DNA of 64,000 nt from an uncultured Halanaerobiales bacterium. GTDB taxonomy: Bacteria > Bacillota > Halanaerobiia > Halanaerobiales > M55B127. The notes below the pieces were generated by a model. That model worked only from the letters and a program-made list of their open reading frames with translations. It was not told the origin of the DNA and made no database searches. This document shows, piece by piece, positions 2,380-49,486 of this stretch. The position numbers and the translations under genes are program-made. Within the stretch, counting starts at the first letter, position 1. Each line of letters starts with the position of its first letter. Location of the stretch: NCBI GenBank assembly GCA_964430875.1, contig CAYSHP010000007.1, positions 1,736 to 65,735 of the forward strand. The letters are read 5' to 3'.

Positions 2380-4443
2380 TTATAGTTTCTTATTATTTTT
2401 ATCTTTATACATATTTTTGTCCGCTATTCTTTTGGCTTCAAAGAGTTCCTCATAAGTTTTATTAATTACTTTGTATCCTAAAGAAATACTTAAATCTATT
2501 TTTAAATTGTTTTCTTCAGTGTATGTTCTACATTTATCTTTTATTCTATTACATATCAATTCCGTTTCCTTAGCATCTGTTTCAGGCAGCAAAATGCCAA
2601 ATTCATCTCCTCCAAGACGAGCTACTATATCTTCTTTTCTGGTAATACTTTGTAAAATTTCGGCAACAATTATTATATATTCATCCCCTTTTGCATGTCC
2701 TAAATTATCATTGATAGTTTTTAGACCATCAAGATCTCCAATGACAATAGATATTGGTAATCGTCTTGAATGGTTTAATCTCTCCATCTCTTTTTCAAAA
2801 TATGCTCTGTTGTATAGATCGGTCATTTGGTCATGATATGATAAATATCTCATGAAATCCTCTTCTTTTTTTCTGGTTGTTATATCTCTCATAAATACCA
2901 CATAATAAGGTTCTTCGAGTTCGAGATATAAAGCACTGACCTCGATGTCAATTATCTTACCATCTTTCTTTTTATGCTTTGTTTCAAATTTAGCATATTC
3001 TTCTTTCTGTATTTTTAGCATTCTCTTATCTATATCTTCTTTATCATCAATTATTTCTAACTCAGATATATGCATACCCATTAATTCTCTTTGGGTATAT
3101 CCTACCATATTTGCATAAGATTCATTAACATCTGTAATATAAGCATATTTATTAATCATCCAATAACCATCAGGTGTCTTTTCTAAGATTTTTTCTAGTC
3201 GTTCTTTTGATATCAGTGATTTTTTTAAGTCTTTTTGCATTTTATTAAATGAATCAGCTAATATACCTATTTCATCATTTCTTTTCATGTTTATTTTCTT
3301 ATCAAGGTTACCTTTGCCTAAAGAAGTTGCTATAGAAGCAAGTTCAATTAAAGGCTTAGCTAATTCTTTGCCAAATTTTATAGATAATAAGGATAAAAAT
3401 ATTACTATAATTATACCCGAATATATCAATACTCTTCTAATTTCATAAAAATCACCTAATTTTTCATCTAGATCTGCTGTTATTAATACCTTCCAAGTTT
3501 CATCTTTATTGCCTTTTTTTTGATCAATAGACACAGTGTTGCCCCCAAATTTAATTCTGTTATTACCGTTAGTTATATTTACATTAGCACTACTAAATAT
3601 CTTTTCTTCACCATCAACATTAACAATATAAGAGTTGTTATCATTATCTAATTTATTTAAAACTTTCTGATTAACTTCTGTAGATAAAGGCTCCTTGTCT
3701 TTTTCATAAACAATATATCCGCCGGATCTTACAATTTTTAAATTGCCCACCATATATGAATAACTATAGTTTTCTTCTAAATTAGATAAAAGCCCTTTTA
3801 TATTAACATTACACTTTAAAATGCCTATTATGATATCATCCTTTTTGATAGGAACAACTATTCCTAAAACATAACCTTCAACACTGCTATCATATCCCCT
3901 GTCATCTAGATATATTGTGCCGTAATTCTTATATGAACCCTGCCACCAATATTTATGAGAATGGGCAAGAGTTGTTAACTTACCAGTAGAAGCTACTAAA
4001 ACTCCATATTTATTGGTTAAAAATATTTCCCCAAAAAAATCAGAATCACTCTGATATAAATCACTAAAATAATTTGCCACTTTATTTTTAGTATATCTTT
4101 CTATAAAAGGATGATCATTTTTTTTTAAAAGCATCCATTTTTCATTCAATAAATTTATTATACTTTTTCTAGTTAATTCATTCATGTTTTGATAATTTGC
4201 ATTACTGGTTTCTAAGCTTTCTTTAATAATTGGTGATTTAGAAATAGTCTCAACTCTTGCAATTATTTCTTTTATTTCCTTATCTAGATTTAAAGAATAA
4301 TTGACCGCTAAATTTTTCATATCCTGTTTATTATTTTCGATATATACTTTCTTAAAATGAAAATTATGTATTAACAGCATTAACAAAATAGCTAGAAATC
4401 CCACAACTATAATCCTATAAGTTAACTTTTTCTTTAATTTCAT
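2380..4443 (-). CDS. Membrane sensor diguanylate cyclase (TM, Cache-like extracytoplasmic domain, TM, HAMP, PAS, GGDEF)
   Basis: 687 aa. N-terminal TM, about 300 aa extracytoplasmic region, second TM, HAMP (DEIGILADSFNKM) and PAS. GGDEF is intact (RLGGDEFGILL) with an RxxD I-site (RKED) 5 residues upstream. Confidence 0.9.
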   Translation of the reverse strand: MKLKKKLTYRIIVVGFLAILLMLLIHNFHFKKVYIENNKQDMKNLAVNYSLNLDKEIKEIIARVETISKSPIIKESLETSNANYQNMNELTRKSIINLLNEKWMLLKKNDHPFIERYTKNKVANYFSDLYQSDSDFFGEIFLTNKYGVLVASTGKLTTLAHSHKYWWQGSYKNYGTIYLDDRGYDSSVEGYVLGIVVPIKKDDIIIGILKCNVNIKGLLSNLEENYSYSYMVGNLKIVRSGGYIVYEKDKEPLSTEVNQKVLNKLDNDNNSYIVNVDGEEKIFSSANVNITNGNNRIKFGGNTVSIDQKKGNKDETWKVLITADLDEKLGDFYEIRRVLIYSGIIIVIFLSLLSIKFGKELAKPLIELASIATSLGKGNLDKKINMKRNDEIGILADSFNKMQKDLKKSLISKERLEKILEKTPDGYWMINKYAYITDVNESYANMVGYTQRELMGMHISELEIIDDKEDIDKRMLKIQKEEYAKFETKHKKKDGKIIDIEVSALYLELEEPYYVVFMRDITTRKKEEDFMRYLSYHDQMTDLYNRAYFEKEMERLNHSRRLPISIVIGDLDGLKTINDNLGHAKGDEYIIIVAEILQSITRKEDIVARLGGDEFGILLPETDAKETELICNRIKDKCRTYTEENNLKIDLSISLGYKVINKTYEELFEAKRIADKNMYKDKNNKKL

Positions 4444-4503
4444 AATATCGATCCCTCTATTTTACTTTTTGGTACTTAATCTATAAACTTAGTTATTATT
4501 GAT

Positions 4504-7014
4504 TTATCTTTTTTTAACAAAAGCAAAATCATAAACTGGTTCACCATAATTATCTTTAATTACTCTGACCTTTATATTTACATCTATATATTCTCCATTT
4601 TTCTTAATGTACTTTTTATTCAATTCAAAGTTATCTAGTTCTTTATTAGTTATCTTATCCATATACTCTTTATTTTTTTGATTGTCCTCTTTCTTTGTAA
4701 TATCAAAATGAGTCATTGTTTTTAACTCTTTTTCTGTATAGCCTAGTAATTCACAAAATTTATAATTAACTTCTATTATATTCCCCTTAAAATCAGAAAT
4801 TATAATTGCAATTGGCATTTCATTAAATACAATTCTTTTTTTATTTCTGACTATGCTTAATTTTCTTTTGAAATATTCTTTTTTATTTTGTTTTTTCATC
4901 TCATACATTTTCTCATCTGATATTTTAATTATTTCATTCAAATCCTGTTTATATGACTTTTTGATTGCAATACCGATCGATATGCTGAAATCAATATCTT
5001 TTATATCTATTTTTTTGATATTAATTGCTATTCTATTTTTTATTTTTTTAAGATTATCGTATTTTATTTCAGGCAAGATAATAGAAAATTCATCTCCGCC
5101 TATACGACATATAATGTCTGATTCTCTAACCACATTTCTTAAAACATCAGCTACTCTCTTAATATATTTATCACCTATACTATGACCATACATATCATTT
5201 ACTGATTTTAAATTGTCAATATCAGCAGTAATAACACCTATCGGTAATTTGCGTGATTTATTTATTCTCTTAACTGTATCTGCAAAATATGCCCGATTAT
5301 ATAAACCTGTTAATTGGTCCTGTATTGAAAGATACTTTATTTTATCTTTTTCTTTTTTCCTTTGAGTTATATTTCTTACAAATGCATAAAAGATAGGGCT
5401 AGCTTTTTCATTTATATATGTTTTATTAACCTCTACATCTATTACCTTTCCATTTTTCTTTTTATATTTAGTTTCAAAAAGTTCTTTCTTCTTTTCAATT
5501 ATTTTTTGTAAGCGTGCCTGTAAACCTTTTTTAGTTTCTTTAATATCAATATCTGAAATTTTCATATGCAATAATTCTTTTTCATTATAATCAACCATAT
5601 CTATAAAGGATTTATTAACTCTTATAAATTCACCCTTTTCATTAATTATAAAGAAACCATCTCCAGTTGTTTCAAGTATTTTATCAAGCTTATCTTTTTG
5701 TTCTTGCAATTTTTCATCTTTTATTCTTTTTTCTGTTATATTTTCATGTGCGATTACTGCACTGTATTCACCTTCTCCAACAAATGGAGTTATCCTCATT
5801 TTAAACCATCTTTTTTTATAAGGTGAATGACAAGGATATTCTATAGAAAAAGTGTCTGCCTTACCCTTAATAACTCGTTTTATACCGTCATAAACAATCC
5901 CTGCCTCTTTAGACCATTCACCTTCAGAATTTTTACATACTTCTAAATAATTTGTGCCTACTCCGCTTTCTTCTTCTTTTAAACCATTATTTACAGCAAA
6001 ATTTTCCCAAGCATTATTTACATATTTAATAAATCCTTTTCTATCTAGAACAGCTATATTTGCCGATAAGGAATTTATTAAGGATTGGCTTAATTCTTTT
6101 TCTTTTATTAAATTTTTCTCATATTTTTTCCTTTTAGAAATGTCCCTGGATACACTTAATACCATTTTCTTTTTATCTAAATTCACAATTTTTGAATTAA
6201 TCTCAACAGGTACTTTTTTGCCATTTTTAGTTTTATGAATAGTTTCAAAGATGTGTTCTTTTTTCTCTTCTAATTTTTTTATATTTTCTTTCCGCTTTTC
6301 TATAGTTTCTGATGTTATTACATCTAGTTCTTCGGGGCTAAGTTTTAAAAGTTCATCTTTAGTATATCCTAATTTTTTACAGGTAGCCTCATTAACATCA
6401 ATAAATGGTCCTAATTTATTTTCCTTGCTCTGAGGATAGTATTCATGGAAGAATATCGGGTCATTAATACTATCAAGAATCATTTGGGAATCATGCTTTA
6501 TTTGTTCATAGTCTTTTATTCTTTCATTTAAAATACTATTAAGGTATATATTTTCCAGCTTATATTCAATGATCGTTTTAAATTCTTTCATTAGATCTTT
6601 TTCTTCTTCTTTGAAATTTCTTTCTTTATTATCAAAGACACAAAAAGTCCCAAATGTTTTACCGTCAGGTTTTAAAATCGGTACTCCTAAATATGATTTC
6701 AAATTATATTTTTGGGACTGAGGAAACTCTAAATTATTTTTGTTTTTATAATTACTAATTTCTATTAATCTCTTTTCCTTTAATACTTTTTCACAATAAT
6801 GACCAGCCATTTTATATCTATCATTTTTTTTAAAGGGATTATTATTGGAGTTGTTTGTACTAATGATTACTAAATTATCATTATCGCGTTTTGTAATCAT
6901 AGCAATATTAACTTTTAAAAGGCTGACAATTAAATCTGCTATCTTTTGCCATTCTTCTTCCACTAATAATAGCAACTCATATTTATTTTTATTATTGGGT
7001 CTTCCACTAAACAT
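4504..7014 (-). CDS. Cytoplasmic multi-PAS diguanylate cyclase (GAF-like, PAS x3, GGDEF, C-terminal PAS)
   Basis: The ORF is 4504..7023. I prefer ATG at 7014 (GAGGTG RBS 6 nt upstream) over the GTG at 7023. Carries RIGGDEFSIIL with an RESD I-site. An extra PAS domain follows the GGDEF domain. Confidence 0.88.
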   Translation of the reverse strand: MFSGRPNNKNKYELLLLVEEEWQKIADLIVSLLKVNIAMITKRDNDNLVIISTNNSNNNPFKKNDRYKMAGHYCEKVLKEKRLIEISNYKNKNNLEFPQSQKYNLKSYLGVPILKPDGKTFGTFCVFDNKERNFKEEEKDLMKEFKTIIEYKLENIYLNSILNERIKDYEQIKHDSQMILDSINDPIFFHEYYPQSKENKLGPFIDVNEATCKKLGYTKDELLKLSPEELDVITSETIEKRKENIKKLEEKKEHIFETIHKTKNGKKVPVEINSKIVNLDKKKMVLSVSRDISKRKKYEKNLIKEKELSQSLINSLSANIAVLDRKGFIKYVNNAWENFAVNNGLKEEESGVGTNYLEVCKNSEGEWSKEAGIVYDGIKRVIKGKADTFSIEYPCHSPYKKRWFKMRITPFVGEGEYSAVIAHENITEKRIKDEKLQEQKDKLDKILETTGDGFFIINEKGEFIRVNKSFIDMVDYNEKELLHMKISDIDIKETKKGLQARLQKIIEKKKELFETKYKKKNGKVIDVEVNKTYINEKASPIFYAFVRNITQRKKEKDKIKYLSIQDQLTGLYNRAYFADTVKRINKSRKLPIGVITADIDNLKSVNDMYGHSIGDKYIKRVADVLRNVVRESDIICRIGGDEFSIILPEIKYDNLKKIKNRIAINIKKIDIKDIDFSISIGIAIKKSYKQDLNEIIKISDEKMYEMKKQNKKEYFKRKLSIVRNKKRIVFNEMPIAIIISDFKGNIIEVNYKFCELLGYTEKELKTMTHFDITKKEDNQKNKEYMDKITNKELDNFELNKKYIKKNGEYIDVNIKVRVIKDNYGEPVYDFAFVKKR

Positions 7015-7064
7015 AAAATACACCTCTTTAAACCATATTTCAATTTAATTTTTTCGGTTAAAAA

Positions 7065-9332
7065 TTAAAATATGTCTTTTAAACTAGAATTTATGAATCG
7101 TTCAACAATCTTTGGTGAAAATTGAGTTCCCTTATTAGAAATTAACTCTTCTAAAGCTTCCTTTTTACTTAGATTGTTCCTGTAAGGTCTTTCAGAAGTC
7201 ATGGCATCCCATGCATCTGCTACCGATAATATTTGCGAAATGATCGGTATTTGATCTCCTTTTATACCCTTTGGATAACCATTGCCATCCCATCTTTCAT
7301 GATGATATAAAATATATTCAGCTATTTCCCTTAATTCTATTGAATTCTTCAAAGTTTCATATCCCCAGACCGAATGTTTTTTAATAATAAAATATTCATT
7401 TTCCGATAATTTACCTTTTTTATTCAAAATATTTTTAGGTATTATCATTTTACCTATATCGTGTAAAAGTCCAGCCCAATAAGTCATCTCTATGATTTTT
7501 TGGGAAAGATCCATTTCTCTGGCAATTTCTCTCGAGATATTTGCTACTGTTTCATTATGCCCTTTTGTATAATCATCATGTATTTCGAGTAAATTTGTTA
7601 AAGAAATGATAACCTCATCTGTAAACTCTCTTTGCAATCTATTATAATTTTTTAATGTTAAATACGAAGAAGCCAATCTTTCTATAGAATATAAGGTCCT
7701 CTGGGCATTTTCTGTAAACTCTTCGCTACTATCTTTTTTTATTTCTATAGACATTCGACCAATTATGTTATCATTAACTAATATATTGACTAGTAAAGAA
7801 TTTTTTATTTTTTTTATATTATTTTGGTAATGATCATACAACTTAATAGGTGCTTTATCCTTATCAATAATATTGTTATCTTCAATTTCTTTTATATAAA
7901 ATTTATCATGATTTTTCATATGTATTCTCTTAATATCCAATTTATTTATATTATCAATATTATAACCTACAGCATCAATGAATTTAGCTTTACCATTTTC
8001 AAATAAGTAAATCAACCCATGGTCTGCTTCCGGGATTAATTCCATAGATTTTTTCAAAACTATCGATAAAAACTCTTCTTTATTAGTATCAGTTCCTATT
8101 TTTGAGATTAATTCAATGATATTTTCTAGGTTATAACTCAATATATCTAACTCTTTATAAGTTCTTTCTAAATCTTCATTCATAGCTCTTATTTCTTCAT
8201 TATTTGCCTCAAGCTCCATATATTTTTCTTGTAACTCATCGTTGGCTTCCATTATTTTCTTTTGTTTTTCTTTTCTATCAGAAATATCTCTACTAATAGC
8301 CAATAAATATTTTTTTCCGTTTTCTCTATAAGCATTCAATTTAGTTTCAACCGGTATGCTTTTTTTATTCTTATTAATATGAACTGATTCATAGCTGAAT
8401 TTATTTTCTTTAAATAGTTTTGTAAAAATTTTTTGATGAATTTCTTCAACTATTCTTTCAGGTACTATTTTAGAAGGACTAATTTCTTTAAATTCTTCTC
8501 TAGTATAGCCTAATACTTCACAAGCTTTATCGTTTACTTTTATAAATTTACTGTCTTCATATTTATCTTGAATTTCTAGTAAAAAAACTTCGTCATTAAT
8601 CTTGTTGAATAAAAACTCATATTCATTATTTTTTGACTTTAATTTACGCTTAAATTTACTTTCTCTTTTTTTAAATTCCTGTATGTTTTTAAGCCATGTT
8701 TTAATTTTATACTCAACAATTCTATTGTTTTTAAACCCATCAGGCTCAATATAATAAGGATTTTCATACAGATTGTCCTTCCAAATTATATAATGATGTA
8801 ATTCAAGAATTGATTTAATAATTTCATTATCAAACTTATTCAAATTATATCTACATAAAGCAATTACAGGATAATTATCAAAAATTTCATCATTCAACAA
8901 CCACTCATATTTAATTAGTTCTTCTTTCCCTCTTTTATAGTTTAAGACCCAACTTAGTTCTCCTGTAATACTAAGCCCAGTATAACCATCTTCAATAGCT
9001 TGGGAAGATAAATTTTTCAAAAGTGTTATCATCTTATCTGCTTCAAATTGATCACTTAAAGCATAAGTTTCTTCTTTAGATAAAAATTGTAATTGTCTGG
9101 TTTTTATTAACTGACTAAAATCATCTCGTTCTTTTTGCAGTTCACTATTTATTAACTTTGTATTTGCATCCCCTTGTATATATAAACATATTTCTCCCCG
9201 TTTTAAACTGTTTTTTATAAAAGAAACAACTGGATTTAATGTTTCCTTTTCTTCCTCGTATAATAATACTGAATGGTCGCCCGGTTCTAATTTATCCATG
9301 TTCTCCATTTTTCCAAAATGAACATTCTGCAC
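7065..9332 (-). CDS. MEDS-PAS-GAF-HD-GYP c-di-GMP phosphodiesterase
   Basis: 755 aa. GTG start with an AGGGGG RBS. The N-terminus GDHSVLLYEEE..GEICLYI..LSITGELSW..ALCRYN matches the MEDS pattern. The HD-GYP core is intact (LLHDIGK, HHERWDGNGYP). Confidence 0.88.
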   Translation of the reverse strand: MQNVHFGKMENMDKLEPGDHSVLLYEEEKETLNPVVSFIKNSLKRGEICLYIQGDANTKLINSELQKERDDFSQLIKTRQLQFLSKEETYALSDQFEADKMITLLKNLSSQAIEDGYTGLSITGELSWVLNYKRGKEELIKYEWLLNDEIFDNYPVIALCRYNLNKFDNEIIKSILELHHYIIWKDNLYENPYYIEPDGFKNNRIVEYKIKTWLKNIQEFKKRESKFKRKLKSKNNEYEFLFNKINDEVFLLEIQDKYEDSKFIKVNDKACEVLGYTREEFKEISPSKIVPERIVEEIHQKIFTKLFKENKFSYESVHINKNKKSIPVETKLNAYRENGKKYLLAISRDISDRKEKQKKIMEANDELQEKYMELEANNEEIRAMNEDLERTYKELDILSYNLENIIELISKIGTDTNKEEFLSIVLKKSMELIPEADHGLIYLFENGKAKFIDAVGYNIDNINKLDIKRIHMKNHDKFYIKEIEDNNIIDKDKAPIKLYDHYQNNIKKIKNSLLVNILVNDNIIGRMSIEIKKDSSEEFTENAQRTLYSIERLASSYLTLKNYNRLQREFTDEVIISLTNLLEIHDDYTKGHNETVANISREIAREMDLSQKIIEMTYWAGLLHDIGKMIIPKNILNKKGKLSENEYFIIKKHSVWGYETLKNSIELREIAEYILYHHERWDGNGYPKGIKGDQIPIISQILSVADAWDAMTSERPYRNNLSKKEALEELISNKGTQFSPKIVERFINSSLKDIF

Positions 9333-13039: not shown

Positions 13040-15112
13040 TTATATTTCAAATTGCTCAACTTTACTAGAAAGCTTTTGTGCCATCTCTGAAAGATTTTCT
13101 GATGCTTTAACAATTTCTTCGGTTGAGGCACTTTGTTCTTCACTGGAAGCAGCTACTTCTTCTGCATTACTAGATGCCTGTTCACTAACTGAGGCAACTT
13201 CATCTACAGCTTTTTCTACTTGTGAACTCTTCGCAGCCATATCTTCTGCTGCCTCTGTGATATCTTTAATAAGGCTTCTTAGACTAACTGCTGCAGAATC
13301 AATCTCACCAAAGGAATTCTCAGTTGTTTTAATTGCATCTACGCCATCTTCAACTGCCTCTTCTGCTTTATTCATTTGTTTTATAGTATCTTGAACACCA
13401 TCTTGTATTTCATTGATCAAAGAAGCAATGTTTTCTGTTGCATCAGAAGATTCTTCAGCAAGTTCTCTAATCTCATCTGCAACCACACTAAATCCTCTGC
13501 CAGCTTCTCCTGCTCTAGCTGCCTCTATTGCAGCATTTAAAGCAAGTAGATTGGTCTGGGCCGAAATACCATTAATCAGTTCTACAATATCACCAATTTG
13601 TTCTGATAATTTGCCCAAGTCATCTATCCTATTTGATACAGCCTGTGATTGATTTTTAACTTCTCTGACTTGGTCGATTGAATTATTTATTGAGGTATTA
13701 CCTTCTTTAATATTATCCATAACATTACCAGCTTTTTCATCCATTTCTCCAGACTTTTCTCCCACATTATCAATTCTACCGGCTAAATCTTCAACATTCC
13801 CTTTTGTTTCTTCAATCTGAGCAGTCTGCTCTTCAGCCCCGGAAGCAACTTCTTGAATAGCAGTTCCTACCTGTTCAGCGGAGGCTGAAATCTCTTCACT
13901 GGAAGCTGAAAGCTCTTCACTAGAAGAAGAAAGGTCACTAGCGATTTCTGCCACATCTTCAATTACACCTCGTAAATTATCCTGCATTTTATTTAATGCA
14001 TTTGCTAAAGTCCCTATTTCATCCTCTGAATTAACATCAATTTTTTTAGCTCTCAAATTACCTTGAGCAATCTCTTTAGCAAACTCTACTCCGAGATTAA
14101 CAGGTTTAGTAATACTTCTAGTTATTATAAATGCGATAAGGGCTCCAATTATTAAAGCAACAATTAAAGCTATAATTAAATTTCTAATTGCCGCTGTTTG
14201 CCCCTCTTCCATTTCGGCAAGTTGTAAGTCCTGTAATTCATTTGCACTAGCCAAAAATTCATCAGCTTTAGTTTCCATAGTTGCTTTATTTTGATCTTTG
14301 GTTAGTTCTATTTCATGAATTTGTTGGAATACATTTTCTGTATTATTCAATTGATTTAATATACCCTCTGCTGTTTTAATATCTTTTTCCTCATTAAAGG
14401 AATTTTTAAGTTCCGTTGCTGTTTCTTTAGCAGTTTGGAAAGCAGCTAAAGTACTGTTTGCATATCTTTCCTGCCCTTCTGCATCAGCAAGGTTAATTAT
14501 GTAATTTCTCTCCTGTCTTCCTATATTATCAACATTTTGAACCAACTGATTAGCAAGTAATAAAGTTTGAAGTTTTTGTTCGATATCCCTTATTTCTACA
14601 TTTCCCATTCCACTATTCATATCAGCTATTAGTTCGTCATATTCTTCCTTTTGGGCTTTTTCTAAACTCTCTATTTGACTTTTTAGTTCTTCTTCTACAG
14701 CCACAAATTCAGTTCTAAGTTCATTTTGCTGAAAAAGAGAGTCCGCATAAGAAATAGCGGCTGTTTTATATTGATTAGCAAGAGACTGCATGTTATCAAT
14801 CCTTTTTTTATCAGCCTCTTCTTGCATTAGTTCTTTGGTTTTATCACCGCTTGCCACCATAGAACTTACCATCTGGTCTATATTATCAATATATATTTGT
14901 TCTTCTTGTAACATGAAATTTTTCTCATTTTGTCTAATTTCCAATGTCGTTTCAGCAAAACCAGCTGCATCATTAGAAATCTGAACGTCATGATCGACAT
15001 TATTTAAACCCTGATAACCCACTAATGCCATAATACCAGCTATCAAAATTAAAATTGCAAATCCTCCACCAATTTTAAACCCTAAATTTAAATTCTTAAA
15101 AAATTTTAACAA
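13040..15112 (-). CDS. Methyl-accepting chemotaxis protein (4HB-type sensor, HAMP, MA domain)
   Basis: 690 aa with two TM segments, HAMP and the conserved signalling tip ([33 protein letters not shown]). TTG start with a GGAGGAG RBS. Confidence 0.95.
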
Positions 15113-15410: not shown

Positions 15411-15527
15411 AAATAAAAAAATATGGCCCTTCTTTTTGGCCATAGTATCTATGGTAACCTGGCAGTCTATTTAAAATAGACCCATAGCTTTGCGTCCTTT
15501 TCTTACGAAAAGTTTGCCTTTTTCATC
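15411..15527 (-). promoter_or_regulatory. c-di-GMP-I (GEMM-I) riboswitch aptamer plus intrinsic terminator expression platform
   Basis: The minus-strand RNA carries GGCAAAC-hairpin(GUAA)-GGACGCAAAGCUAUGGGUC...GACUGCCAGGUUACCAUAG. This is followed by UAUGGCC-N9-GGCCAUA and U7. It matches the class I c-di-GMP aptamer core as I remember it (Vc2). Confidence 0.85.
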
Positions 15528-18577: not shown

Positions 18578-20968
18578 TTACTCATTCTTATTTTTTCCTT
18601 TGAACTCTGCTGCTTTAGCTGCTTTTTCTTCCATAACCTCTTTTACTTTTTGGTGAACTTCGTCCGCTGGTCTATCAAACATTAATTCAATTGCTTCATC
18701 AATATTACTTATTGAATAAAGTTGAAACTTGTCATCTTTTATAGCATTAATAACTTCTTCTTCTAGCATGAGATTATCTTTATTTTGTTCAGGTATTATT
18801 ACACCCTGAGTACCTGTTATTTCTTTATTTTTACAGACTTTATAGAAACCTTCTATTTTCTCATTTACTCCCCCGATAGGCTGTATTTTCCCCTTCTGGT
18901 TCATAGAACCAGTAATTGCTAAATCCTGTCTGATTGGATATTCAGATATTGAAGAAAGAATTGCAATTAATTCAGCTGCTGTTGCAGAATCTCCTTCAAT
19001 TCCACCATAGCTTTGTTCAAATGCTAAAGATACATTTAAACTTAAGGGAGTATCTTTTGCATATTTATTTCCTAAATATCCAGAGAAGATTAAGACAGCT
19101 TTGTTGTGGATCTTACCACTCATATCAGCTTCACGTTCAATATTGATAACTCCTTCTTGACCCATAAAGGTCTGAGCTGTAATTCTAGTCGGGCGTCCGA
19201 AAGAATACTGACCAGTTTGATATACAGATAAACCATTAATCTGACCGGACTCGTCTCCATCTACATCAACTAGAATATGCTCATCTTCAATTTTTTCCTG
19301 GATTTTTTCTTCAATAAGATTCGATCTTCTGATCTTTTCATCTATAGCTTTTTTAACATCTTCTCTTTCTACTAAGTCATGACTATTAACATCTGATAAA
19401 GCATCTGCTTCATAGATCAATTCTAATATTTGGTTAAATTTAGCTGTCATCTTATCCTTGTCTTCTGACATCCTGCTTCCATATTCAATTACTTTTGAAA
19501 CAGCTTCTGGCTTAAAGTGATTTAAACCTTCTTTTCTACAGATAGAAGCTATAAAGGAAGCAAAGTTTTTCATATTTTCTTCATTTCTTTTCATTTCATA
19601 ATCAAATGCTGCTCTAATTTTAAATAGTTTTTTGAATTCTTCATCATAATGGTAAAGTAACTGATAGATATATGGGTTACCTATTAATATTACTTTAACA
19701 TCTATAGGTACTCCCTCTGGTTTTAGACCACTAATTGGAATACTTCTGTATTGTTCACCTATATTTTCAACCACTATCTCCTGGTTTATGAGGATCCTTT
19801 TTAATGTTTCCCAGGCAAAAGGCTTAGTTAAAAGGTCTTTTACCTTCATAATGAGGTATCCGCCGCTTGCCTCATGAATAGCCCCACTTTTTATCATTGT
19901 GAAATCAGTTGTTAAAGTACCAAACTGACTTTTAGCCTCTATCTTACCAAATAGATTATAATAGGTTGGGTTTTGTTCAAAGATAACAGGTGCTCCATCA
20001 AGTTCTTTATTATCTACTATTAAGTTTACTTTATATCTTACGAAAAAGGAATCATCATTTTGCTGCTGTTGGAATAATTTCGAAAGGCTCTGATTTTGGC
20101 TATCCTGATCCCCATCTTTAAACTTATCTAGATGTTGTGTTATATCATGTTTTACTCTCTCTAAATACTGCTTTATTTCTTCAATATCATCATATTTTTC
20201 TTTTAAGTTTTCTATCCTGGGTTCTATTACATTAAGACTTAATTTTTTTTCCATTTCTTTCAACTTTTCCTGTGCTTCTGACTTTATATCTCTGATCCGC
20301 CTCATCATTTTTTCCATATCATTTTGAATTTCTTGACTTTTTTCGCGTAATTTACTTTTCTTTTCTTCATCTAATTTTTGAAATTCGTCTTGTTTGATTA
20401 CATTACCTTCTTCATCTATAGGTACAGGAACTGTACCTCTAGCTGTATTTTGCAAAGTAAATCCTTCTTTTCTAATTTCTTTATTAAATTCTTCCATGAT
20501 TTCATTTGACTTTTCCTGGTACTGTTTCATGATCTTATCACGGGCTTCATCATACTCTTCACCCTGGAAAACTTCTGGAATCTCTTCTTTAAGATCCTTT
20601 ATAATATTTTCCATATCACTTTCTAATCTTAAACCAGTACCCGGAGGTAATTTCATTGCTTTTGGTTTTTCAGGATTACCAAAATTAAACACATATACTA
20701 CATCTTCGGGAACTTCTTTTTTAGCAGCTTTTTTATCTGCTATTGTTTTGGCATAAGTTGAACGTCCAGAACCACTTACACCAGATATATAGATGTTGTA
20801 TCCTTCGTGTTCAATACGCATTCCAGTTTCTATTGCATCTACGGCTCTCTGTTGTCCTATTATTCCGTCTTCAAATGGTTCTAATTCAGCTGTGGATTCA
20901 AACGAGAAAATATCAGGATTACATGCACACTTAAGTTCATCTACAGGAATATTGTAACCTTTTTCCAT
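18578..20968 (-). CDS. Lon-like protease (AAA_32/LonC type) with coiled-coil insertion and C-terminal S16 Ser-Lys protease domain
   Basis: 796 aa. The P-loop reads GVSGSGRST (Arg in place of the Walker A Lys). A long charged helical insert spans about residues 130-310. The protease domain carries GDSATAAE and GGVNEKIEG. Confidence 0.88.
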   Translation of the reverse strand: MEKGYNIPVDELKCACNPDIFSFESTAELEPFEDGIIGQQRAVDAIETGMRIEHEGYNIYISGVSGSGRSTYAKTIADKKAAKKEVPEDVVYVFNFGNPEKPKAMKLPPGTGLRLESDMENIIKDLKEEIPEVFQGEEYDEARDKIMKQYQEKSNEIMEEFNKEIRKEGFTLQNTARGTVPVPIDEEGNVIKQDEFQKLDEEKKSKLREKSQEIQNDMEKMMRRIRDIKSEAQEKLKEMEKKLSLNVIEPRIENLKEKYDDIEEIKQYLERVKHDITQHLDKFKDGDQDSQNQSLSKLFQQQQNDDSFFVRYKVNLIVDNKELDGAPVIFEQNPTYYNLFGKIEAKSQFGTLTTDFTMIKSGAIHEASGGYLIMKVKDLLTKPFAWETLKRILINQEIVVENIGEQYRSIPISGLKPEGVPIDVKVILIGNPYIYQLLYHYDEEFKKLFKIRAAFDYEMKRNEENMKNFASFIASICRKEGLNHFKPEAVSKVIEYGSRMSEDKDKMTAKFNQILELIYEADALSDVNSHDLVEREDVKKAIDEKIRRSNLIEEKIQEKIEDEHILVDVDGDESGQINGLSVYQTGQYSFGRPTRITAQTFMGQEGVINIEREADMSGKIHNKAVLIFSGYLGNKYAKDTPLSLNVSLAFEQSYGGIEGDSATAAELIAILSSISEYPIRQDLAITGSMNQKGKIQPIGGVNEKIEGFYKVCKNKEITGTQGVIIPEQNKDNLMLEEEVINAIKDDKFQLYSISNIDEAIELMFDRPADEVHQKVKEVMEEKAAKAAEFKGKNKNE

Positions 20969-20997
20969 TGATTACCACCTCCGAAATTGTTAATTAA

Positions 20998-21006
20998 ATT
21001 ATACCA
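20998..21006 (-). promoter_or_regulatory. Extended -10 element (TGGTATAAT) upstream of the Lon-like gene
   Basis: The minus strand reads TGGTATAAT about 30 nt upstream of the GGAGGTGG RBS. No good -35 element. Confidence 0.4.
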
Positions 21007-21079
21007 TAGTCACGAAGGTAAATAAAAGTCTAGAGAAGAATTATTAACATTCTAATCTTCATAAAAACTTTACTACAAA

Positions 21080-21111
21080 TTAAAAAACCCTATCTGAGAT
21101 AACAGATAGGG
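21080..21111 (-). terminator. Intrinsic terminator (hydantoinase 3' region / candidate sRNA 3' end)
   Basis: Minus strand CCCUAUCUG-UUAUCU-CAGAUAGGG followed by UUUUUU. Confidence 0.8.
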
Positions 21112-21198
21112 AAGGGGTGTCATAAAATTTATTTAACTTTTGCTTGTTAATTTATAAGCAATTAAAATGTTTTAAAAAGTTTCTTATTTATCGATTTC
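21082..21198 (-). ncRNA. Candidate small RNA (about 115 nt) bounded by its own promoter and the terminator above
   Basis: A near-consensus promoter at 21205..21233 fires into a non-coding 180-nt gap. The predicted transcript has an internal hairpin UUGCUU-N10-AAGCAA, a single-stranded CACCCCUUCCC tract and a terminator. No plausible ORF with an RBS. Confidence 0.35.
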
Positions 21199-21204
21199 AA
21201 AGAT

Positions 21205-21233
21205 AGTATAACATAATTAATTACTTTGTGCAA
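21205..21233 (-). promoter_or_regulatory. SigA-type promoter inside the hydantoinase-Lon intergenic region
   Basis: -35 TTGCAC (21233..21228), 17-nt spacer ending in TGT, -10 TATACT (21210..21205). Confidence 0.55.
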
Positions 21234-21291
21234 GGTTTCACAATAATTTTTTTAATTTTTTTTCTCCTCTCTTATTTCTAAGCTAATTAAC

Positions 21292-22680
21292 TTAATATAA
21301 AGAACTTTTATCGGCCTTAATAAACTGTCCATCTCCCCTATTTCCACGATAAGCACCTTGATTTACAACTAGATTACCGCGGCTAATAGTAGTTACTGGA
21401 TAACCTGATACTTCAATATGGTTATATGGACTATAGCCGGCATTAGAATGCATAAACATAGCTTCTAATTTTCTTGATTTGGCAGGGTCAAAAATAACTA
21501 AGTCAGCATCTGTATTTTCTTTTAGACTACCTTTTTGTGGATAAAGTCCAAATATTTTAGCGGGATTAGTAGATAATTTATTTATTATATCTACTAAATC
21601 CATACCTTTTTTAGTACCAAAATGATGAATTAAAGGTAAAAGAGTTTCTGAACCAGGTATTCCCGGTAAAGTATTAAAAACATCATCACCCATTTTCTTT
21701 TGAGCAATATCAAAGGAACAATGATCAGTTGCTACTACATCAATATTATTTTGTAATAAACCATCCCATAATTTTTTATTATCCTCTTCGGTTCTAAGAG
21801 GAGGAGTCATAAAATAAAGATAACTATCTTCTCTATTAAGAAATCCTCTATTTAAAAGCAAATAATGTGGTGCTGTTTCTGCCTTTAAATTTATGCCTTT
21901 CGCTTGATTTTTTCTTAATACTTCTAAACCTTCTTTTGACGATAAATGTACAATATAGCCTGGCATGTTAAACATTTTTATCAATTCAGCTATATTATCC
22001 ACTGCTTTTGCTTCTGCTTGTCCGGTTCTAATATCTGGATGGTATTTAAGATCTGTCTTACCCTCTTTTTTATATTTTTCTTCATTTTTTTCAATAATTT
22101 CATTATCTTCAGCATGTACAATAGGTAAAAGTTCCATTTGTTTTAAAGTTTTAAATAGCTCATAAAGTTTATCTTCTTCAATTAAATAACCTGCTCTGCG
22201 GTAAGTTGTAAATATCTTAATTGAACTTATTCCTTCATCTTTTACTTTTCTTAATTGCTGAGGACTTAATTCATCAAAATGAGTAACTGTTTGATGAAAG
22301 GTATAGTCTACAACTGCATCCCGGGCCTCCTTTTTCCTATTATCTAAAGAGTCCTTAAAAGTCCGGTCTCTTTCATGTTCATCATCAATGAAATCTATAA
22401 AAGTTGTTACTCCGCCAAAGGCAGAAGCAATCGAACCACTGTAAAAATCATCAGCTGTAACCGTGTTACGTGATTTTAAAAGATAATGGGTGTGGGCATC
22501 AATGATACCCGGAAAAACATATGAACCTTCTGCATCTATTACATTACTTTCTCTAACTTCAGATTCATTAAAATCTTCTGGTTTAGCAACTTTTTTTATA
22601 TACTCATCCTCAATTAAAATATTCATTTGCTCTATAGTATTTTCTTTAACTACTTGACCGTTTTTTATATAAATACTCAT
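21292..22680 (-). CDS. Cyclic amidohydrolase: D-hydantoinase/dihydropyrimidinase family, HyuA (YgeZ)-like
   Basis: ATG at 22680 (RBS AAGGAGGT). Motifs: DAHTHY, SIKIFTTY (carbamylated-Lys region), IVHLSS, PPLR..LW, DVVATDHCSF, FGLYPQKGSL. From memory these resemble E. coli HyuA. Confidence 0.88.
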   Translation of the reverse strand: MSIYIKNGQVVKENTIEQMNILIEDEYIKKVAKPEDFNESEVRESNVIDAEGSYVFPGIIDAHTHYLLKSRNTVTADDFYSGSIASAFGGVTTFIDFIDDEHERDRTFKDSLDNRKKEARDAVVDYTFHQTVTHFDELSPQQLRKVKDEGISSIKIFTTYRRAGYLIEEDKLYELFKTLKQMELLPIVHAEDNEIIEKNEEKYKKEGKTDLKYHPDIRTGQAEAKAVDNIAELIKMFNMPGYIVHLSSKEGLEVLRKNQAKGINLKAETAPHYLLLNRGFLNREDSYLYFMTPPLRTEEDNKKLWDGLLQNNIDVVATDHCSFDIAQKKMGDDVFNTLPGIPGSETLLPLIHHFGTKKGMDLVDIINKLSTNPAKIFGLYPQKGSLKENTDADLVIFDPAKSRKLEAMFMHSNAGYSPYNHIEVSGYPVTTISRGNLVVNQGAYRGNRGDGQFIKADKSSLY

Positions 22681-23417: not shown

Positions 23418-23514
23418 ATAGACACTTCAGCCCCTTCTTTAAAAATAATTATCCTTTTATCATATATTCTCTATTAGGGTGTAAAATCCTCCCTTATTTC
23501 TTGACTATATTAGT

Positions 23515-33052: not shown

Positions 33053-33391
33053 TTAATTACTGTTGTCCTCTGCTTTATAGGTTAATATTTCTACTTTTTC
33101 TACTGTTACTAATCCTTCTTTTACCATCTCTTGTACAGTAGGTATTATATTGTCTATCTTTTCTGACTTATCAACCACCTCAATCATAATAGGAAGATCT
33201 TCAGATAGTTGCCAGATATGAGAATTTTTAATTCTACTGTTTAAACCAAACCCTTCTATTCCGGAAATTGCAGTTGCTCCAGCTAATCCCATTTCTTTAA
33301 ATTTTTTTATCAATGCTCTGTAGAGTGGTTCACCTTCCAACATATCATTTTCGCCAATATATATTTTTAACACTTTACCTTCTCCAACCAT
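33053..33391 (-). CDS. DUF190 (PII-like fold) protein
   Basis: The ORF is 33053..33433. The start is moved to ATG at 33391 (RBS AAGGATGGTGA), which removes the overlap with the antiporter. KIYIGENDMLEGEPLY..GLAGATAISGIEGFG is typical of DUF190. Confidence 0.8.
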   Translation of the reverse strand: MVGEGKVLKIYIGENDMLEGEPLYRALIKKFKEMGLAGATAISGIEGFGLNSRIKNSHIWQLSEDLPIMIEVVDKSEKIDNIIPTVQEMVKEGLVTVEKVEILTYKAEDNSN

Positions 33392-33407
33392 TTTATCACC
33401 ATCCTTT

Positions 33408-34601
33408 TTATTTAAGCCAATTATTACCCGCAAATTTAATACCGACTGCCCCCAAAGGTGCAGTAATCACAATAGCTAACACTGCCATAGCTAAAATTAA
33501 TTCACCCGATTCAACTCCAACTGCTATAGGTACTGCCCCAATTGCTGCTTGAACTGTCGCCTTTGGTGTATAGGCTATCACACAAAAAAATCTTTCTTTT
33601 AAATTTAAAGGGGTATTAGTTACAGAAATTAACACACCTATACTTCTAGCCAAAAGACCAACTGAGATAATTAACAAACCTTTCAAACCAGTTTCAATAG
33701 CCAGATAAACATCCACCTCAGCTCCCACAAGTACAAAAAGCATTATTTCTGCAAAAACCCATATCTTATTAAATTTAGAAGCAAGTCTTGTTCCTACTAA
33801 TTTATAACGTTCCTGAAGTACAAATCCTATTGTCATAACCCCAAGAAGAGAAGCAATTGGCACAATATCTTTTAAATAATCTTCTAAGCCAGTTAATAAT
33901 ATTGCGGATCCTAATATAATTAAAGCTTTTTTTGTATCTCTAAAGTGATATTTCTTAAATAGATAAACCATAAATAAAGCTATAAAAAATCCAAGCAGAA
34001 CTCCTATAATAATGGATAAGGGGACATCCATTATCTTTTTTGTAATATTTATTTGTTTCCCTCCATAAATACCCATGAATGTAGTAAAAATTGTAATAGC
34101 AACTACATCATCAATAGAAGCTCCAGTCAATATTAAAGTGGGTATTCCTTTATTAGTTCCCTTATTTTTATTTATCAAATTTAACATCTGGGGAACTACC
34201 ACAGCCGGTGAAACAGCTGCAATAATAAAAGCTAATATTCCTGCCTCCACGAAAGATAACTCAAAAATATAACTTGCAACTAATAAAATTGAAATCCCTT
34301 CTAAAATACCCGGTATAAAACTTAGTCTAAAAGCAGGAAGACCTACTTTTTTGAGCGTTTCTTTTTCAATACCTAAACCTGCTCTCAACAAAATTACAAT
34401 TAAGGCAATCTTTCTTAAATCGGCTGATATATTTAATATTTCATTACTGATAATACCAAATCCATAAGGACCAATTAAGATTCCCAAAATTAACATCCCC
34501 AGTAAACCCGGTAACTTAATTTTATCAAATAATCTATTAAAACCCAATCCCAATAAAATAATTACTGCTAAACTAAAGGCCATAACAACTTCACACTCCA
34601 T
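33408..34601 (-). CDS. Cation:proton antiporter (Na+/H+ exchanger family)
   Basis: 397 aa polytopic protein with an LPGLLGMLILGILIGPYG N-terminus. The start could instead be ATG at 34583 (MAFSL). Confidence 0.85.
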   Translation of the reverse strand: MECEVVMAFSLAVIILLGLGFNRLFDKIKLPGLLGMLILGILIGPYGFGIISNEILNISADLRKIALIVILLRAGLGIEKETLKKVGLPAFRLSFIPGILEGISILLVASYIFELSFVEAGILAFIIAAVSPAVVVPQMLNLINKNKGTNKGIPTLILTGASIDDVVAITIFTTFMGIYGGKQINITKKIMDVPLSIIIGVLLGFFIALFMVYLFKKYHFRDTKKALIILGSAILLTGLEDYLKDIVPIASLLGVMTIGFVLQERYKLVGTRLASKFNKIWVFAEIMLFVLVGAEVDVYLAIETGLKGLLIISVGLLARSIGVLISVTNTPLNLKERFFCVIAYTPKATVQAAIGAVPIAVGVESGELILAMAVLAIVITAPLGAVGIKFAGNNWLK

Positions 34602-34618: not shown

Positions 34619-34710
34619 TAAAAAAATAAGCTCCTATTCAGCCCAATTGTTCTGAATAGGAGCCATCAATTGCAAAATATGCAATAATTAAGGTGAGCTC
34701 CATCACCTAC
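34619..34710 (-). promoter_or_regulatory. Fluoride riboswitch (crcB motif) with terminator expression platform
   Basis: The minus-strand RNA reads AGGUGAUGGAGCUCACCUUAAUUAUUGCAUAUUUUGCAAUUGAUGGCUCCUA. This is followed by the hairpin GCUCCUAUUCAG-N10-CUGAAUAGGAGC and U7. It closely parallels the remembered B. cereus crcB riboswitch (AGGCGAUGGAGUUCGCCAUAAACGCUGCUUAGCUAAUGACUCCUAC plus terminator). Confidence 0.85.
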
Positions 34711-34731
34711 TATATTTTTAATTATATATTA

Positions 34732-44591: not shown

Positions 44592-44611
44592 GGGGAGGAA
44601 ATTTCCTCCCC
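44592..44611. other. Perfect 20-nt GC-rich palindrome (intercistronic hairpin)
   Basis: GGGGAGGAAATTTCCTCCCC lies between the permease stop and the MocA start. On the minus strand only UUUAUAAU follows it. Confidence 0.4.
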
Positions 44612-44628
44612 CTTTTATATTTATATCT

Positions 44629-45951
44629 TTATAAAAACAAGAAGTATGCAATAAATACTGCACCTAATACATAAACTAATGTATTTACTTCTTTTCCTCT
44701 ACCAGTAAATAACTTAATTAGAGGGTAAATAATAAAGCCTAAAGCAATTCCATTAGAAATTGAATATGTTAAGGGCATTGCGATCATAGCAATAAAGGCT
44801 GGTAATACTTCAGTGAAATCATCCCAGTCTAAGTCACTTACATTAGTCATCATCATAGTACCTACTATAACTAAAGCAGGGGCAGTAGCTGCACCGGGCA
44901 CTAGACCAATTAATGGTCTAAAGAACAATGCTAAGAAAAATAGGATAGCAGTAACTACACCTGTTAAACCTGTTCTACCACCTTCAGCAACACCGGCAGC
45001 AGACTCAATATATGTTGTAACTGTACTGGTACCAAAGAGCGCACCACCAGTAGTACCAATCGCATCAGCCAAGAGAGCATTACTTGCTTTTGGTAGGTTA
45101 CCATCTTCATCAATATAGCCAGCCTGTTTACTTACTCCTACCAGAGTACCGGCTGTATCAAAAAGGTCAACAAATAAGAATGATAATAAGACTCCTACCA
45201 TACTTAATCTTAAAGCTGAAGCAATATCTAATTGGAATAAAACTTGGTTCCAATCAGCCATCTTAGGCATTGCAAAAATACCATTAAAAGCTGGGGTTAC
45301 ACCATTTGTCCAGCCAAAAGCTGTCGCTATTAAGATACCCCAGAGGAGTGATCCTTTTATTTTAAGGGAATGTAAAATTCCAGTTACTATTAAACCAATC
45401 AGGGCAACTAAAGCAGGCCCTGATAATAATGAACCCATACTTACTAAAGTAGCTTCATCATTAACAACGATTCCAGCATTTTGTAGTCCGATAAAAGCAA
45501 TAAATAAACCTATACCAGCACTAATACCAGTTTTTAGATTCATTGGTATAGAGTTAACTATCTTTTTCCGGACCGGCGTCACACTTAAGACAATAAAGAT
45601 TATACCTTCTATAAATATTATCCCTAAAGCGGTCTGCCAGGATACACCCATACCAATAACTACAGAATAAGCAAAAAATGCATTTAAGCCCATACCTGAA
45701 GCTAGTGCAAATGGATAATTTGTTAAGAAAGCCATCGCCAAAGTACCTAAAATAATACCAGCAATTGTAGCAATAAATACTCCATTAAAAGGCATCCCTG
45801 CTTCACTAAGGATTGATGGGTTTACAAATATAATATAAGCCATGGTTAAAAAGGTTGTAAATCCAGCAATTACCTCAGTCTTAGGATCGGTATTGTTCTC
45901 TTTAAGTTTAAATACCTTTTCCAGGAAGCCTCCGTCATTCATTTCGTTCAT
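44629..45951 (-). CDS. NCS2/AzgA-type adenine-guanine-hypoxanthine permease
   Basis: ATG at 45951 (RBS AAGGAGGG). TEVIAGFTTFLTMAYIIFVNP is the hallmark N-terminus of PbuG/GhxQ-type permeases. Confidence 0.9.
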   Translation of the reverse strand: MNEMNDGGFLEKVFKLKENNTDPKTEVIAGFTTFLTMAYIIFVNPSILSEAGMPFNGVFIATIAGIILGTLAMAFLTNYPFALASGMGLNAFFAYSVVIGMGVSWQTALGIIFIEGIIFIVLSVTPVRKKIVNSIPMNLKTGISAGIGLFIAFIGLQNAGIVVNDEATLVSMGSLLSGPALVALIGLIVTGILHSLKIKGSLLWGILIATAFGWTNGVTPAFNGIFAMPKMADWNQVLFQLDIASALRLSMVGVLLSFLFVDLFDTAGTLVGVSKQAGYIDEDGNLPKASNALLADAIGTTGGALFGTSTVTTYIESAAGVAEGGRTGLTGVVTAILFFLALFFRPLIGLVPGAATAPALVIVGTMMMTNVSDLDWDDFTEVLPAFIAMIAMPLTYSISNGIALGFIIYPLIKLFTGRGKEVNTLVYVLGAVFIAYFLFL

Positions 45952-46043
45952 CAAATTCCCTCCTTATTAATGATAAGTCTTAATTTAGATAAATATTGAA
46001 GATAATCTTACACTTATTTTCCCTTTTAACACCTCCTCTTAAA

Positions 46044-47759: not shown

Positions 47760-47813
47760 TTTAATCCCTCCCTCCCTTATACTTATTATCTATTATATTC
47801 TTATATGTTTTAA

Positions 47814-48902: not shown

Positions 48903-48907
48903 CAATA

Positions 48908-49486
48908 TCACTCCTCATTTTTATTAATTTTCATAATTGTCTTTCTTAATTCTTGATAAATATCTTCAAAAACAGATTCATGGTTTTTTTCTTTAACCCT
49001 ATACATACTTATATCATTTCTGCTTCTTATCTTATCTAAAAACTTGTTATGCTCATCTTTGATTACAGCCAATACTGGTTTTTTACTGTCCATAATTTCA
49101 AACACTTTTTCTTGAAATTTTAAAGCCTTCAGCTCAAACCTCCCAAGTTCATCCATGACTAATATATCTCGAAATTTGCTTCCAATTTCTAAAAACTGAA
49201 CTCCTTTATCATCAAAAACCTCGGGATTAACTTGCCAATCTTGGGAAGGATGGTCTCTTTTCGCAAAAATCTGACATTTCTTTTTAAACCCTGCTGAATC
49301 TTTTCCCTGCCAATGGTAATAGTAATCCAGAGGATCTGTTAGGTAAAAACTTAACCACTGATTTATATTGCCTGTTCGACCTACTACAAATCCTCCGGGT
49401 TTTAGATTCAATTTATCTAAAATTCTTTTTACAATAGTACTTTTACCGACATACTTATCTCCGGTAATCAATATATTGTTTGGCAT
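48908..49486 (-). CDS. P-loop NTPase, THEP1/PF03266-like
   Basis: 192 aa. ILITGDKYVGKST (Walker A) and ILVMDELGRFEL (Walker B region) parallel Aquifex THEP1 (IIITGEPGVGKTT, IIIDEIGKMEL) as I remember it. The start overlaps the Mo-subunit stop. Confidence 0.7.
   Translation of the reverse strand: MPNNILITGDKYVGKSTIVKRILDKLNLKPGGFVVGRTGNINQWLSFYLTDPLDYYYHWQGKDSAGFKKKCQIFAKRDHPSQDWQVNPEVFDDKGVQFLEIGSKFRDILVMDELGRFELKALKFQEKVFEIMDSKKPVLAVIKDEHNKFLDKIRSRNDISMYRVKEKNHESVFEDIYQELRKTIMKINKNEE

Follow-up and report, generated by a model that had tools for sequence, protein, structure and literature searches.

What is encoded in the gap between a dihydropyrimidinase gene and a gene for a LonC-like protease in an uncultured Halanaerobiales bacterium, and what signal controls it? 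The gap lies in a 64,000-nucleotide stretch of contig CAYSHP010000007.1 (assembly GCA_964430875.1; hereafter, the window), and its minus strand carries a promoter overlapped by a palindrome, a C-rich tract, and an intrinsic terminator. A first-pass annotation made from the letters alone had proposed a small RNA (sRNA) gene at this site. On balance, we consider it probable, though by no means certain, that the element is a gene for a trans-acting sRNA that is repressed by Rex and carries a seed of the anti-Shine-Dalgarno (anti-SD) type. Halanaerobiales are halophilic, fermentative, outer-membrane-bearing Firmicutes that are important in hypersaline sediments and shale-gas wells, and a full-text literature search found no small-RNA papers on this order. 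The candidate would offer an entry point, with NADH/NAD+ as its predicted input via Rex and a defined seed of 10-13 nt.

Two constrained blocks behind the dihydropyrimidinase gene

Related loci (given below as L numbers where they have to be told apart) were gathered by exact-protein look-ups of LonC homologues (79-100% identity), one genome scan, and one metagenome scan. The element was found at 26 loci of one Halanaerobiales clade, representing 15 distinct versions, and always followed the stop codon of the dihydropyrimidinase gene. The closest GTDB representatives are two metagenome-assembled genomes (MAGs) named 'Halanaerobiales bacterium', whose dihydropyrimidinase is 85% identical. The metagenome pattern, GACACCCCTTCCCN{12,22}GGGTTTT, placed no constraint on the interior of the terminator stem; of its matches, 9 were true homologues, which all shared one genomic context, and 16 were chance matches on high-GC contigs. 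Neither this pattern nor covariance model R1 revealed the element in any other genomic context, and R1 found no second significant copy in the window or in the outgroup loci. The order phoU, dihydropyrimidinase, element, LonC was kept throughout, except in L043, where a group II intron follows the terminator. This intron (L043:3073-3136; RF02001, domains D1-D4, 51.7 bits, cut by the contig end) begins about 85 nt past the sRNA terminator, and L043 has no LonC promoter at that point because the intron starts there. Some bacterial group II introns insert after terminator hairpins. The contigs of L015 and L044 stop short of the syntenic site; in L014, a more distant relative, synteny is broken and no trace of the element was found within 22 kb.

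The dihydropyrimidinase proteins are 66-77% identical among lineages, and their four-fold degenerate sites, at 31-45% identity, are saturated. Against this background, the mean pairwise identities in alignment A1 of the divergent versions were as follows:

Stop codon to box: 57%
18-bp box: 93%
-10 to +1: 93%
C-rich tract GACACCCCTT: 100%
Terminator, in which the loop alone varies: 89%
Terminator to LonC promoter (about 80 nt): 35%
LonC promoter and ribosome-binding site (RBS): 63%

Two short blocks, one comprising the complete promoter and the other the C-rich tract with the terminator, are more constrained than the neighbouring coding sequences. The first-pass annotation had named conservation among relatives as a decisive check, and the promoter, 5' end, tract, and terminator all proved to be invariant or nearly so. 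Covariation, another check that it had named, was not seen: none of the 9 terminator pairs covaries, as the stem does not change.

These identities bear on the simplest alternative, namely, that a chance promoter-like match happens to lie beside an ordinary gene terminator and that there is no RNA gene. Promoter-like matches are indeed not enriched in this DNA of about 30% G+C (4 in 1.3 kb versus 6.5 expected in shuffled sequences), and the promoter match by itself is no better than chance; it is through comparison among genomes that the finding rises above chance. Despite saturated synonymous sites, the promoter block and the pre-terminator tract are 93-100% identical, whereas the neighbouring intergenic DNA is 35-57% identical, and recent horizontal copies are excluded by the diverged flanks. 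Since two constrained blocks flank a randomised body, a chance promoter beside an ordinary terminator is ruled out; conservation effectively refutes this explanation, and we give it almost no weight.

The promoter, its operator box, and the case for Rex

The promoter block contains three features:

21233-21228, minus strand: -35 hexamer TTGCAC, unchanged in 15 of 15 versions
21213-21205, minus strand: extended -10 element TGtTATACT, with the hexamer TATACT at 21210-21205 and the TG at 21213-21212; the 17-nt spacer ends in TGT
21243-21226, strand not applicable: operator box TTGTGAAACCTTGCACAA, an 18-bp inverted repeat with 1 mismatch to the Rex-type operator TTGTGAAnnnnTTCACAA

The promoter was found at 21233-21205 just as it had first been described (TTGCAC, 17 nt ending in TGT, and TATACT, on the minus strand), and the block TATGTTATACT in its -10 region is 100% identical across versions. 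The operator box, which in degenerate form reads TTGTGAAnnnnT[TG]CACAA, overlaps the -35 element, and its centre falls at about -36.5 relative to the putative +1 at G21198. By these coordinates, the dyad would be centred over a well-spaced -35 element, a geometry that suggests repression. This palindrome had gone unnoticed in the first-pass annotation. In the 64-kb window, the box is the sole match to TTGTGAAnnnnTTCACAA with at most one mismatch (0.03 expected). When up to two mismatches were allowed in about 250 kb of collected AT-rich sequence, the orthologous sRNA promoters alone matched, and no other Rex-type box was found there. Both half-sites, TGTGAA and TTGCACAA, are unchanged in all versions, and the spacer between them differs (ACCT, TCCT, TACT, or TATT). 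Invariant half-sites around a variable spacer therefore suggest the footprint of a dimeric DNA-binding protein.

The Rex operator consensus is TTGTGAAW4TTCACAA, as defined in S. aureus (PMC2883068), and its flanking TT...AA, A7, and T12 are conserved across our versions. Compared with the Rex operators of Gram-positive bacteria, the box is the same 18-bp inverted repeat, with one mismatch, placed over a core promoter element. Unlike in those operators, the G at position 13 here also builds the TTG of the -35 hexamer, and the product is an sRNA rather than an enzyme of fermentation or respiration. At the level of sequence, the locus has both features of a Rex-regulon promoter, a close 18-bp inverted repeat and its overlap with the core promoter.

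The RNA might be as described here and yet be governed by another regulator of the Crp/Fnr family or elsewhere, in which case its input would not be NADH/NAD+. The consensus of Crp/Fnr/ArcR-type sites is TGTGA-N6-TCACA, which the core TGTGA-N6-GCACA of the box also fits, and rex itself was not found in the collected clade sequence. Opposed to this are the centre of the box at -36.5 over a good -35 element, instead of -41.5 as in class II activation, and the conservation of the TT...AA, A7, and T12 of the Rex consensus. Furthermore, no Crp/Fnr-family protein was present among the 63 window open reading frames (ORFs) scanned against Pfam, and Rex is widespread in Halanaerobium and present in Halarsenatibacteraceae. 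We therefore regard control by a regulator other than Rex as unlikely. A Crp/Fnr class II activated promoter was considered as a specific candidate and rejected: of the 10 core positions, 9 agree, but the box is centred at -36.5 and TTGCAC forms a -35 element at the correct spacing.

Rex does occur at the syntenic slot outside the clade. Dihydropyrimidinase identity falls sharply at the clade border, from at least 68% within to at most 52% outside. Halanaerobium saccharolyticum has, between its dihydropyrimidinase and LonC genes, an opposite-strand gene for a 226-aa protein with PF06971 and PF02629 (L045:7358-8038, minus strand), which scored above the cut-offs of NF003995 (214.5 versus 126), NF003994 (202.5 versus 130), and NF003996 (193.6 versus 138). 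A Halarsenatibacteraceae MAG has phoU, dihydropyrimidinase, two small genes, rex on the opposite strand (L046:3658-4308), and LonC, and in both genomes rex is divergent from LonC. Rex homologues are widespread in Halanaerobium, and one is named from Halarsenatibacteraceae. The 13-kb Halanaerobium locus contains a single TGTTA-N6-TAACA palindrome, immediately upstream of rex, which is consistent with autoregulation but no proof of it; the rex-LonC spacer of L046 holds a Rex-type half-site only. Together, these sequence comparisons indicate that the order possesses Rex and that its link to this locus is ancestral. In the clade, the slot has no rex, but it has a candidate RNA gene with a Rex-type box.

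The RNA, its C-rich seed, and its possible targets

Downstream of the promoter, the following features can be distinguished:

21198-21082, minus strand: predicted primary transcript of about 117 nt (94-117 nt in relatives), 99 bits with covariance model R1
21198-21183, minus strand: A-rich 5' segment GAAAUCGAUAAAUAAG, 75% mean pairwise identity, predicted to be unpaired
21182-21122, minus strand: hypervariable body, 43% pairwise identity, without a consensus helix
21121-21112, minus strand: predicted single-stranded C-rich seed GACACCCCUU, 100% identical in all versions
21119-21109, minus strand: C-rich tract CACCCCTTCCC, a region also written CACCCCUUCCC, which runs into the terminator stem
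21111-21088, then T6 at 21087-21082, minus strand: intrinsic terminator CCCTATCTG-TTATCT-CAGATAGGG with a 9-bp stem

The terminator, including the TTATCT loop and the U6 tract already pointed out in the first-pass annotation, was located at 21111-21082. Its stem, CCCUAUCUG/CAGAUAGGG, has 9 bp with 5 G-C pairs and a 6-nt loop followed by U6; the stem is invariant and the loop alone varies. Terminator-like sites exceed chance expectation (2 found versus 0.3 expected), and this one is unidirectional because the plus strand has no T-run. The 117-nt RNA folds somewhat better than shuffled sequences (z = -2.75), mostly owing to the terminator, and the terminator helix was the sole shared helix in RNAalifold (0 of 9 pairs covarying). 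When ten versions were folded, the first 12 or so nucleotides were unpaired in nine of them, and the middle of the RNA formed weak AU hairpins particular to each version. The UUGCUU-N10-AAGCAA hairpin that had been proposed is present in the body at 21161-21140, but it is confined to this genome and is not conserved. A riboswitch or another structured cis-leader was rejected as a candidate, as no conserved multi-helix structure (0 of 9 pairs covarying) and no Rfam match were found.

Directly 5' of the terminator, the tract (G)ACACCCCUU was unpaired in the minimum-free-energy structure of all 10 folded versions. An unpaired C-rich tract had been predicted at this position, and it held up except at its end: the final CCC (21111-21109) forms the base of the terminator stem, so that the unpaired part is limited to GACACCCCUU. 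The seed, which resembles an anti-SD sequence, is similar to the 16S rRNA 3' end (CACCUCCUUUCU); its complement is GGGAAGGGGUGUC.

The top seed duplexes in the window fall on translation-initiation regions. The strongest (-18.6 kcal/mol) is predicted at GGGAGGGGGA of the gene for a xanthine-dehydrogenase Mo-binding subunit (49486-50475), and further sites lie at azlC, adenine deaminase, phoU, and hsp20. In the phoU leader, AGAAGGGGCUGAA is invariant in six divergent loci and provides a 7-bp perfect match to CCCCUUC; it lies at least 13 nt upstream of the phoU start (window 23420-23444, minus strand; L005, L009, L010, L013, and L016), which is unusually far for an SD sequence. The hsp20 RBS likewise keeps AGGAGGUGU across six divergent loci. 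Since ribosome-binding sites are conserved for reasons of their own, the phoU and hsp20 sites serve as leads only.

A peptide has also to be considered as the product, since a 16-codon ATG ORF starts at 21123 on the minus strand and would encode MTPLPYLLSQIGFFNL. An ATG or TTG stands at this position in most versions. The start codon is, however, lost in the L016 group (TCG), no Shine-Dalgarno (SD) sequence precedes it, and the C-terminal end is encoded by unconserved sequence. As first reported, the frame lacks an RBS and runs through the terminator; its stop lies beyond, leaving the terminated RNA without a stop codon. The shifting start (TTG or TCG), the missing SD sequence, and the position of the stop together argue that the frame is not a coding gene, and we find a 16-residue product hardly credible. 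Conservation, a seed unpaired in every fold, and the unconserved ATG thus support the original proposal of an sRNA gene. In sequence and predicted structure, the element has the general properties of a trans-acting, base-pairing sRNA: a promoter and terminator of its own, a non-coding transcript, and a conserved and accessible predicted seed.

The first-pass annotation had likened the C-rich seed to those of RsaE and RoxS and had suggested an Rfam search. At the gathering threshold, no Rfam family, RsaE (RF01820) included, matched at the element in a scan of the whole window, and scans of eight relatives at that threshold also gave nothing there. In 20900-21400, RsaE did not appear even at E<=10; only weak, terminator-driven matches to PyrR (26 bits versus a gathering threshold of 54), CyaR, and Ref84 were obtained. 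A PyrR site, which the pyrimidine-related neighbour had suggested, was rejected, as the alignment covers the terminator only and skips the PyrR-binding core.

RoxS contains four regions rich in C, in which CCCCUUUGUU is duplicated, and these pair with SD sequences (PMC4409812); its transcription is repressed by Rex (PMC5419742). Like RoxS/RsaE, the candidate is an sRNA of about 100 nt with its own promoter and an intrinsic terminator. Its predicted unpaired seed contains CCCCUU, a part of the duplicated CCCCUUUGUU of RoxS (PMC4409812), and a Rex operator is associated with the promoter, here a putative one with one mismatch that is conserved in all versions. Unlike in RoxS/RsaE, where the operator is downstream of the promoter (PMC5419742), the box here overlaps the -35 element, and the host is a strictly anaerobic member of the Halanaerobiales rather than of the Bacillales. 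The proposed parallel is thus strengthened in its C-rich seed and its Rex-type operator, but not as membership in the RsaE family: CCCCUU and the Rex link are held in common, whereas the RsaE covariance model gave no match and there is one tract only, so that the RNA would work in a RoxS-like manner while standing outside the family. It is best read as analogous, not homologous, to RoxS/RsaE, with convergence as the economical reading. If this is confirmed, the coupling of a Rex operator to a C-rich anti-SD sRNA would have arisen independently of RoxS/RsaE, which would suggest a recurrent design for post-transcriptional redox homeostasis, not a peculiarity of the Bacillales.

We propose that a strong sigma-A-type promoter, whose sequence, position, and conservation are described above, would be occluded by a dimeric repressor bound to TTGTGAAACCTTGCACAA over the -35 element. 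From the operator consensus and geometry, this repressor is most likely Rex, in which case a rise in NADH/NAD+ would release it and turn the RNA on. Transcription would stop at the invariant terminator, as its hairpin and U-tract predict. The unpaired GACACCCCUU(CCC) would then pair with G-rich, SD-type sites of target mRNAs, ideally GGGAAGGGGUGUC, and this pairing would block translation or change mRNA decay, as with RoxS/RsaE. The diverged RNA body is a spacer that is free to drift.

Several points weigh against this proposal. The regulator may be a different one, because the core TGTGA-N6-(T/G)CACA is common to Crp/Fnr-family sites, and tblastn with two Rex queries did not find rex in the sRNA clade, as represented by the 64-kb window and the collected clade loci. 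Which operator Rex prefers in this order is uncertain, because the probable Halanaerobium rex box is of the TTGTTAA type. The start at G21198 was placed from the 7-nt distance after the -10 hexamer, with promoter geometry as the sole basis, and the terminator structure is a thermodynamic prediction alone, because a stem that never varies offers no covariation. Unlike RoxS, with its four C-rich regions, the RNA has the one tract GACACCCCUUCCC and no duplication of CCCCUUUGUU. Finally, local target prediction does not discriminate, because a seed of this anti-SD-like kind pairs with numerous ribosome-binding sites, and the 64 kb did not suffice to establish any specific target.

Upstream of the promoter lies a further feature that may interact with the seed:

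21264-21271, minus strand: purine/G tract GAGAGGAG, located past the dihydropyrimidinase stop codon and ahead of the promoter; in this genome it is weak

Of 11 versions, 9 have a G-run behind the stop codon of the dihydropyrimidinase gene that is perfectly complementary, over 5-8 nt, to one register or another of the seed. The runs differ among versions (GGGAA, AAGGG, AAGGGG, GGGTGT, AAGGGGT, GGGAAGGG, and GAAGGGGT); equivalents of the window's tract occur in L001, L002, L009, L010, L013, L016, L024, L025, and L043, and L005 has no G-run. GGG starts number 17 in the 605 nt from stop codon to box, 0 in the 586 nt of the RNA body, and 3 in the 770 nt past the terminator. Since the stretch from the dihydropyrimidinase stop codon to the promoter has no terminator-like site, operon transcripts should run on to the sRNA terminator. 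In most versions, folds of this long form gave a probability of about 0.9-1.0 for pairing between G-run and seed; the value was 0.6 for the window and 0 for L005. The G-run may therefore be a cis 'anti-seed' that masks the seed in the 3' untranslated region (3'UTR) form, in which case the promoter-derived RNA alone would be active. Instead, the 3'UTR may serve as a target or a sponge.

The same observations could mean that the module acts chiefly in cis, as an element of the upstream phoU-dihydropyrimidinase mRNA, in which the terminator ends the operon, the internal promoter is supplementary, and the C-rich tract pairs with the post-stop G-run, shaping or stabilising the 3'UTR or gating the seed. 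Operon transcripts must reach this terminator, as there is no earlier one, the element always accompanies the dihydropyrimidinase gene, and the seed-complementary G-runs stand at the same place in most versions with high predicted pairing. However, the cis explanation leaves a kept promoter and operator inside a 3'UTR (box 93%, -10 block 100%) unaccounted for, the G-run is missing from L005 and weak in the window, and the predicted pairing is weak evidence, because prediction will pair any G-run in an AU-rich RNA with its only C-run. We therefore doubt that a cis role is the principal one.

The enterobacterial sRNAs MicL and DapZ lie in the 3' regions of mRNAs, where they have their own promoter and share the terminator of the mRNA. 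Like them, the Halanaerobiales sRNA candidate directly follows a coding gene and shares its only terminator, so that long and short forms are expected. Unlike in MicL and DapZ, the promoter lies in the intergenic 3'UTR rather than in coding sequence, and a possible cis anti-seed G-run is present upstream. A more elaborate scenario, which we put forward as speculation and consider distinctly unlikely, is that a Rex-controlled sRNA took over the rex slot of the sister families and that promoter choice gates the seed through masking by the upstream G-run. If true, it would describe a RoxS-like redox riboregulator that evolved convergently in a strictly fermentative diderm Firmicute and has a cis anti-seed built in.

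Flanking genes and other elements of the window

The intergenic gap on the minus strand measures 323 nt (20969-21291), and not the 180 nt first given for the gap after the hydantoinase stop codon. It lies between genes for a 462-aa amidohydrolase and a 796-aa LonC-like protease, and places the sRNA candidate in the 3' region of the phoU-dihydropyrimidinase operon. The amidohydrolase (21292-22680, minus strand) has dihydropyrimidinase/D-hydantoinase as its top NCBIfam match (391.3 bits, just below the cut-off of 393.25), and the protease (18578-20968, minus strand) has the domains AAA_32, LonB lid, and Lon_C. No ORF of at least 40 aa was found inside 20969-21291 on either strand; the flanking ORFs alone touch the edges of the gap. 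In the NCBI annotation of the MAG, no coding sequence stands between the two flanking proteins, as their accession numbers are consecutive. A blastn search of the plasmid database gave no match. The protease gene has a promoter of its own:

20998-21006, minus strand: promoter of the LonC-like gene with the extended -10 element TGgTATAAT (TATGGTATAAT), conserved in relatives

This separate and conserved promoter marks the sRNA as a distinct transcription unit. It also bears on whether the element is instead a Rex-controlled leader or attenuator of the LonC-like protease gene, from which partial read-through would add redox-dependent expression of lonC and hsp20. The element does lie upstream of LonC in the same orientation, and a Rex-related element upstream of LonC recurs in Halanaerobium and Halarsenatibacteraceae, where rex is divergent from LonC. 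Read-through would, however, have to pass a strong terminator (9 bp, 5 G-C pairs, U6) and then about 80 nt of unconserved DNA (35%) before reaching a gene that is served by a conserved extended -10 promoter of its own; L043 has a group II intron behind the terminator. No conserved alternative antiterminator structure was seen, and an invariant single-stranded C-tract is not something that a leader would need. A role as leader or attenuator is thus quite improbable in our judgement. Separately, a conserved block, ACTTTTATTTACCTT, was noted upstream of the LonC promoter (20998-21030, minus strand), which may be a regulator site; hsp20 lies downstream.

Elsewhere in the window, 44600-63400 on the minus strand is a large cluster for anaerobic purine and pyrimidine catabolism. 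It comprises two xanthine-dehydrogenase-type Mo/FAD/2Fe-2S enzyme sets (one with a split Mo subunit), adenine deaminase, two further amidohydrolases, a dihydropyrimidine-dehydrogenase-like DHO_dh plus 4Fe-4S protein, two xanthine/uracil permeases, a carbamoyltransferase, and an M20 peptidase.

Two riboswitches were also recognised. A c-di-GMP-I-GGC riboswitch (15449-15527, minus strand, 71 bits) is found upstream of the gene for a methyl-accepting chemotaxis protein (13040-15112), which heads a cheY-cheA-cheW cluster, with GGDEF/PAS and HD-GYP-type proteins encoded nearby (2380-9332). A fluoride riboswitch (34650-34716, minus strand, 42 bits) precedes two genes, one of the Na+/H+ exchanger family (33408-34601) and one for a DUF190 protein (33053-33433). 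No crcB was seen among the Pfam-scanned window ORFs, and L025 also has a fluoride riboswitch. In L014, from a distant Halanaerobiales MAG, two PYLIS_3 (pyrrolysine insertion) elements (L014:17450-17549 and 18895-18994) lie inside tandem mttB (trimethylamine methyltransferase) genes.

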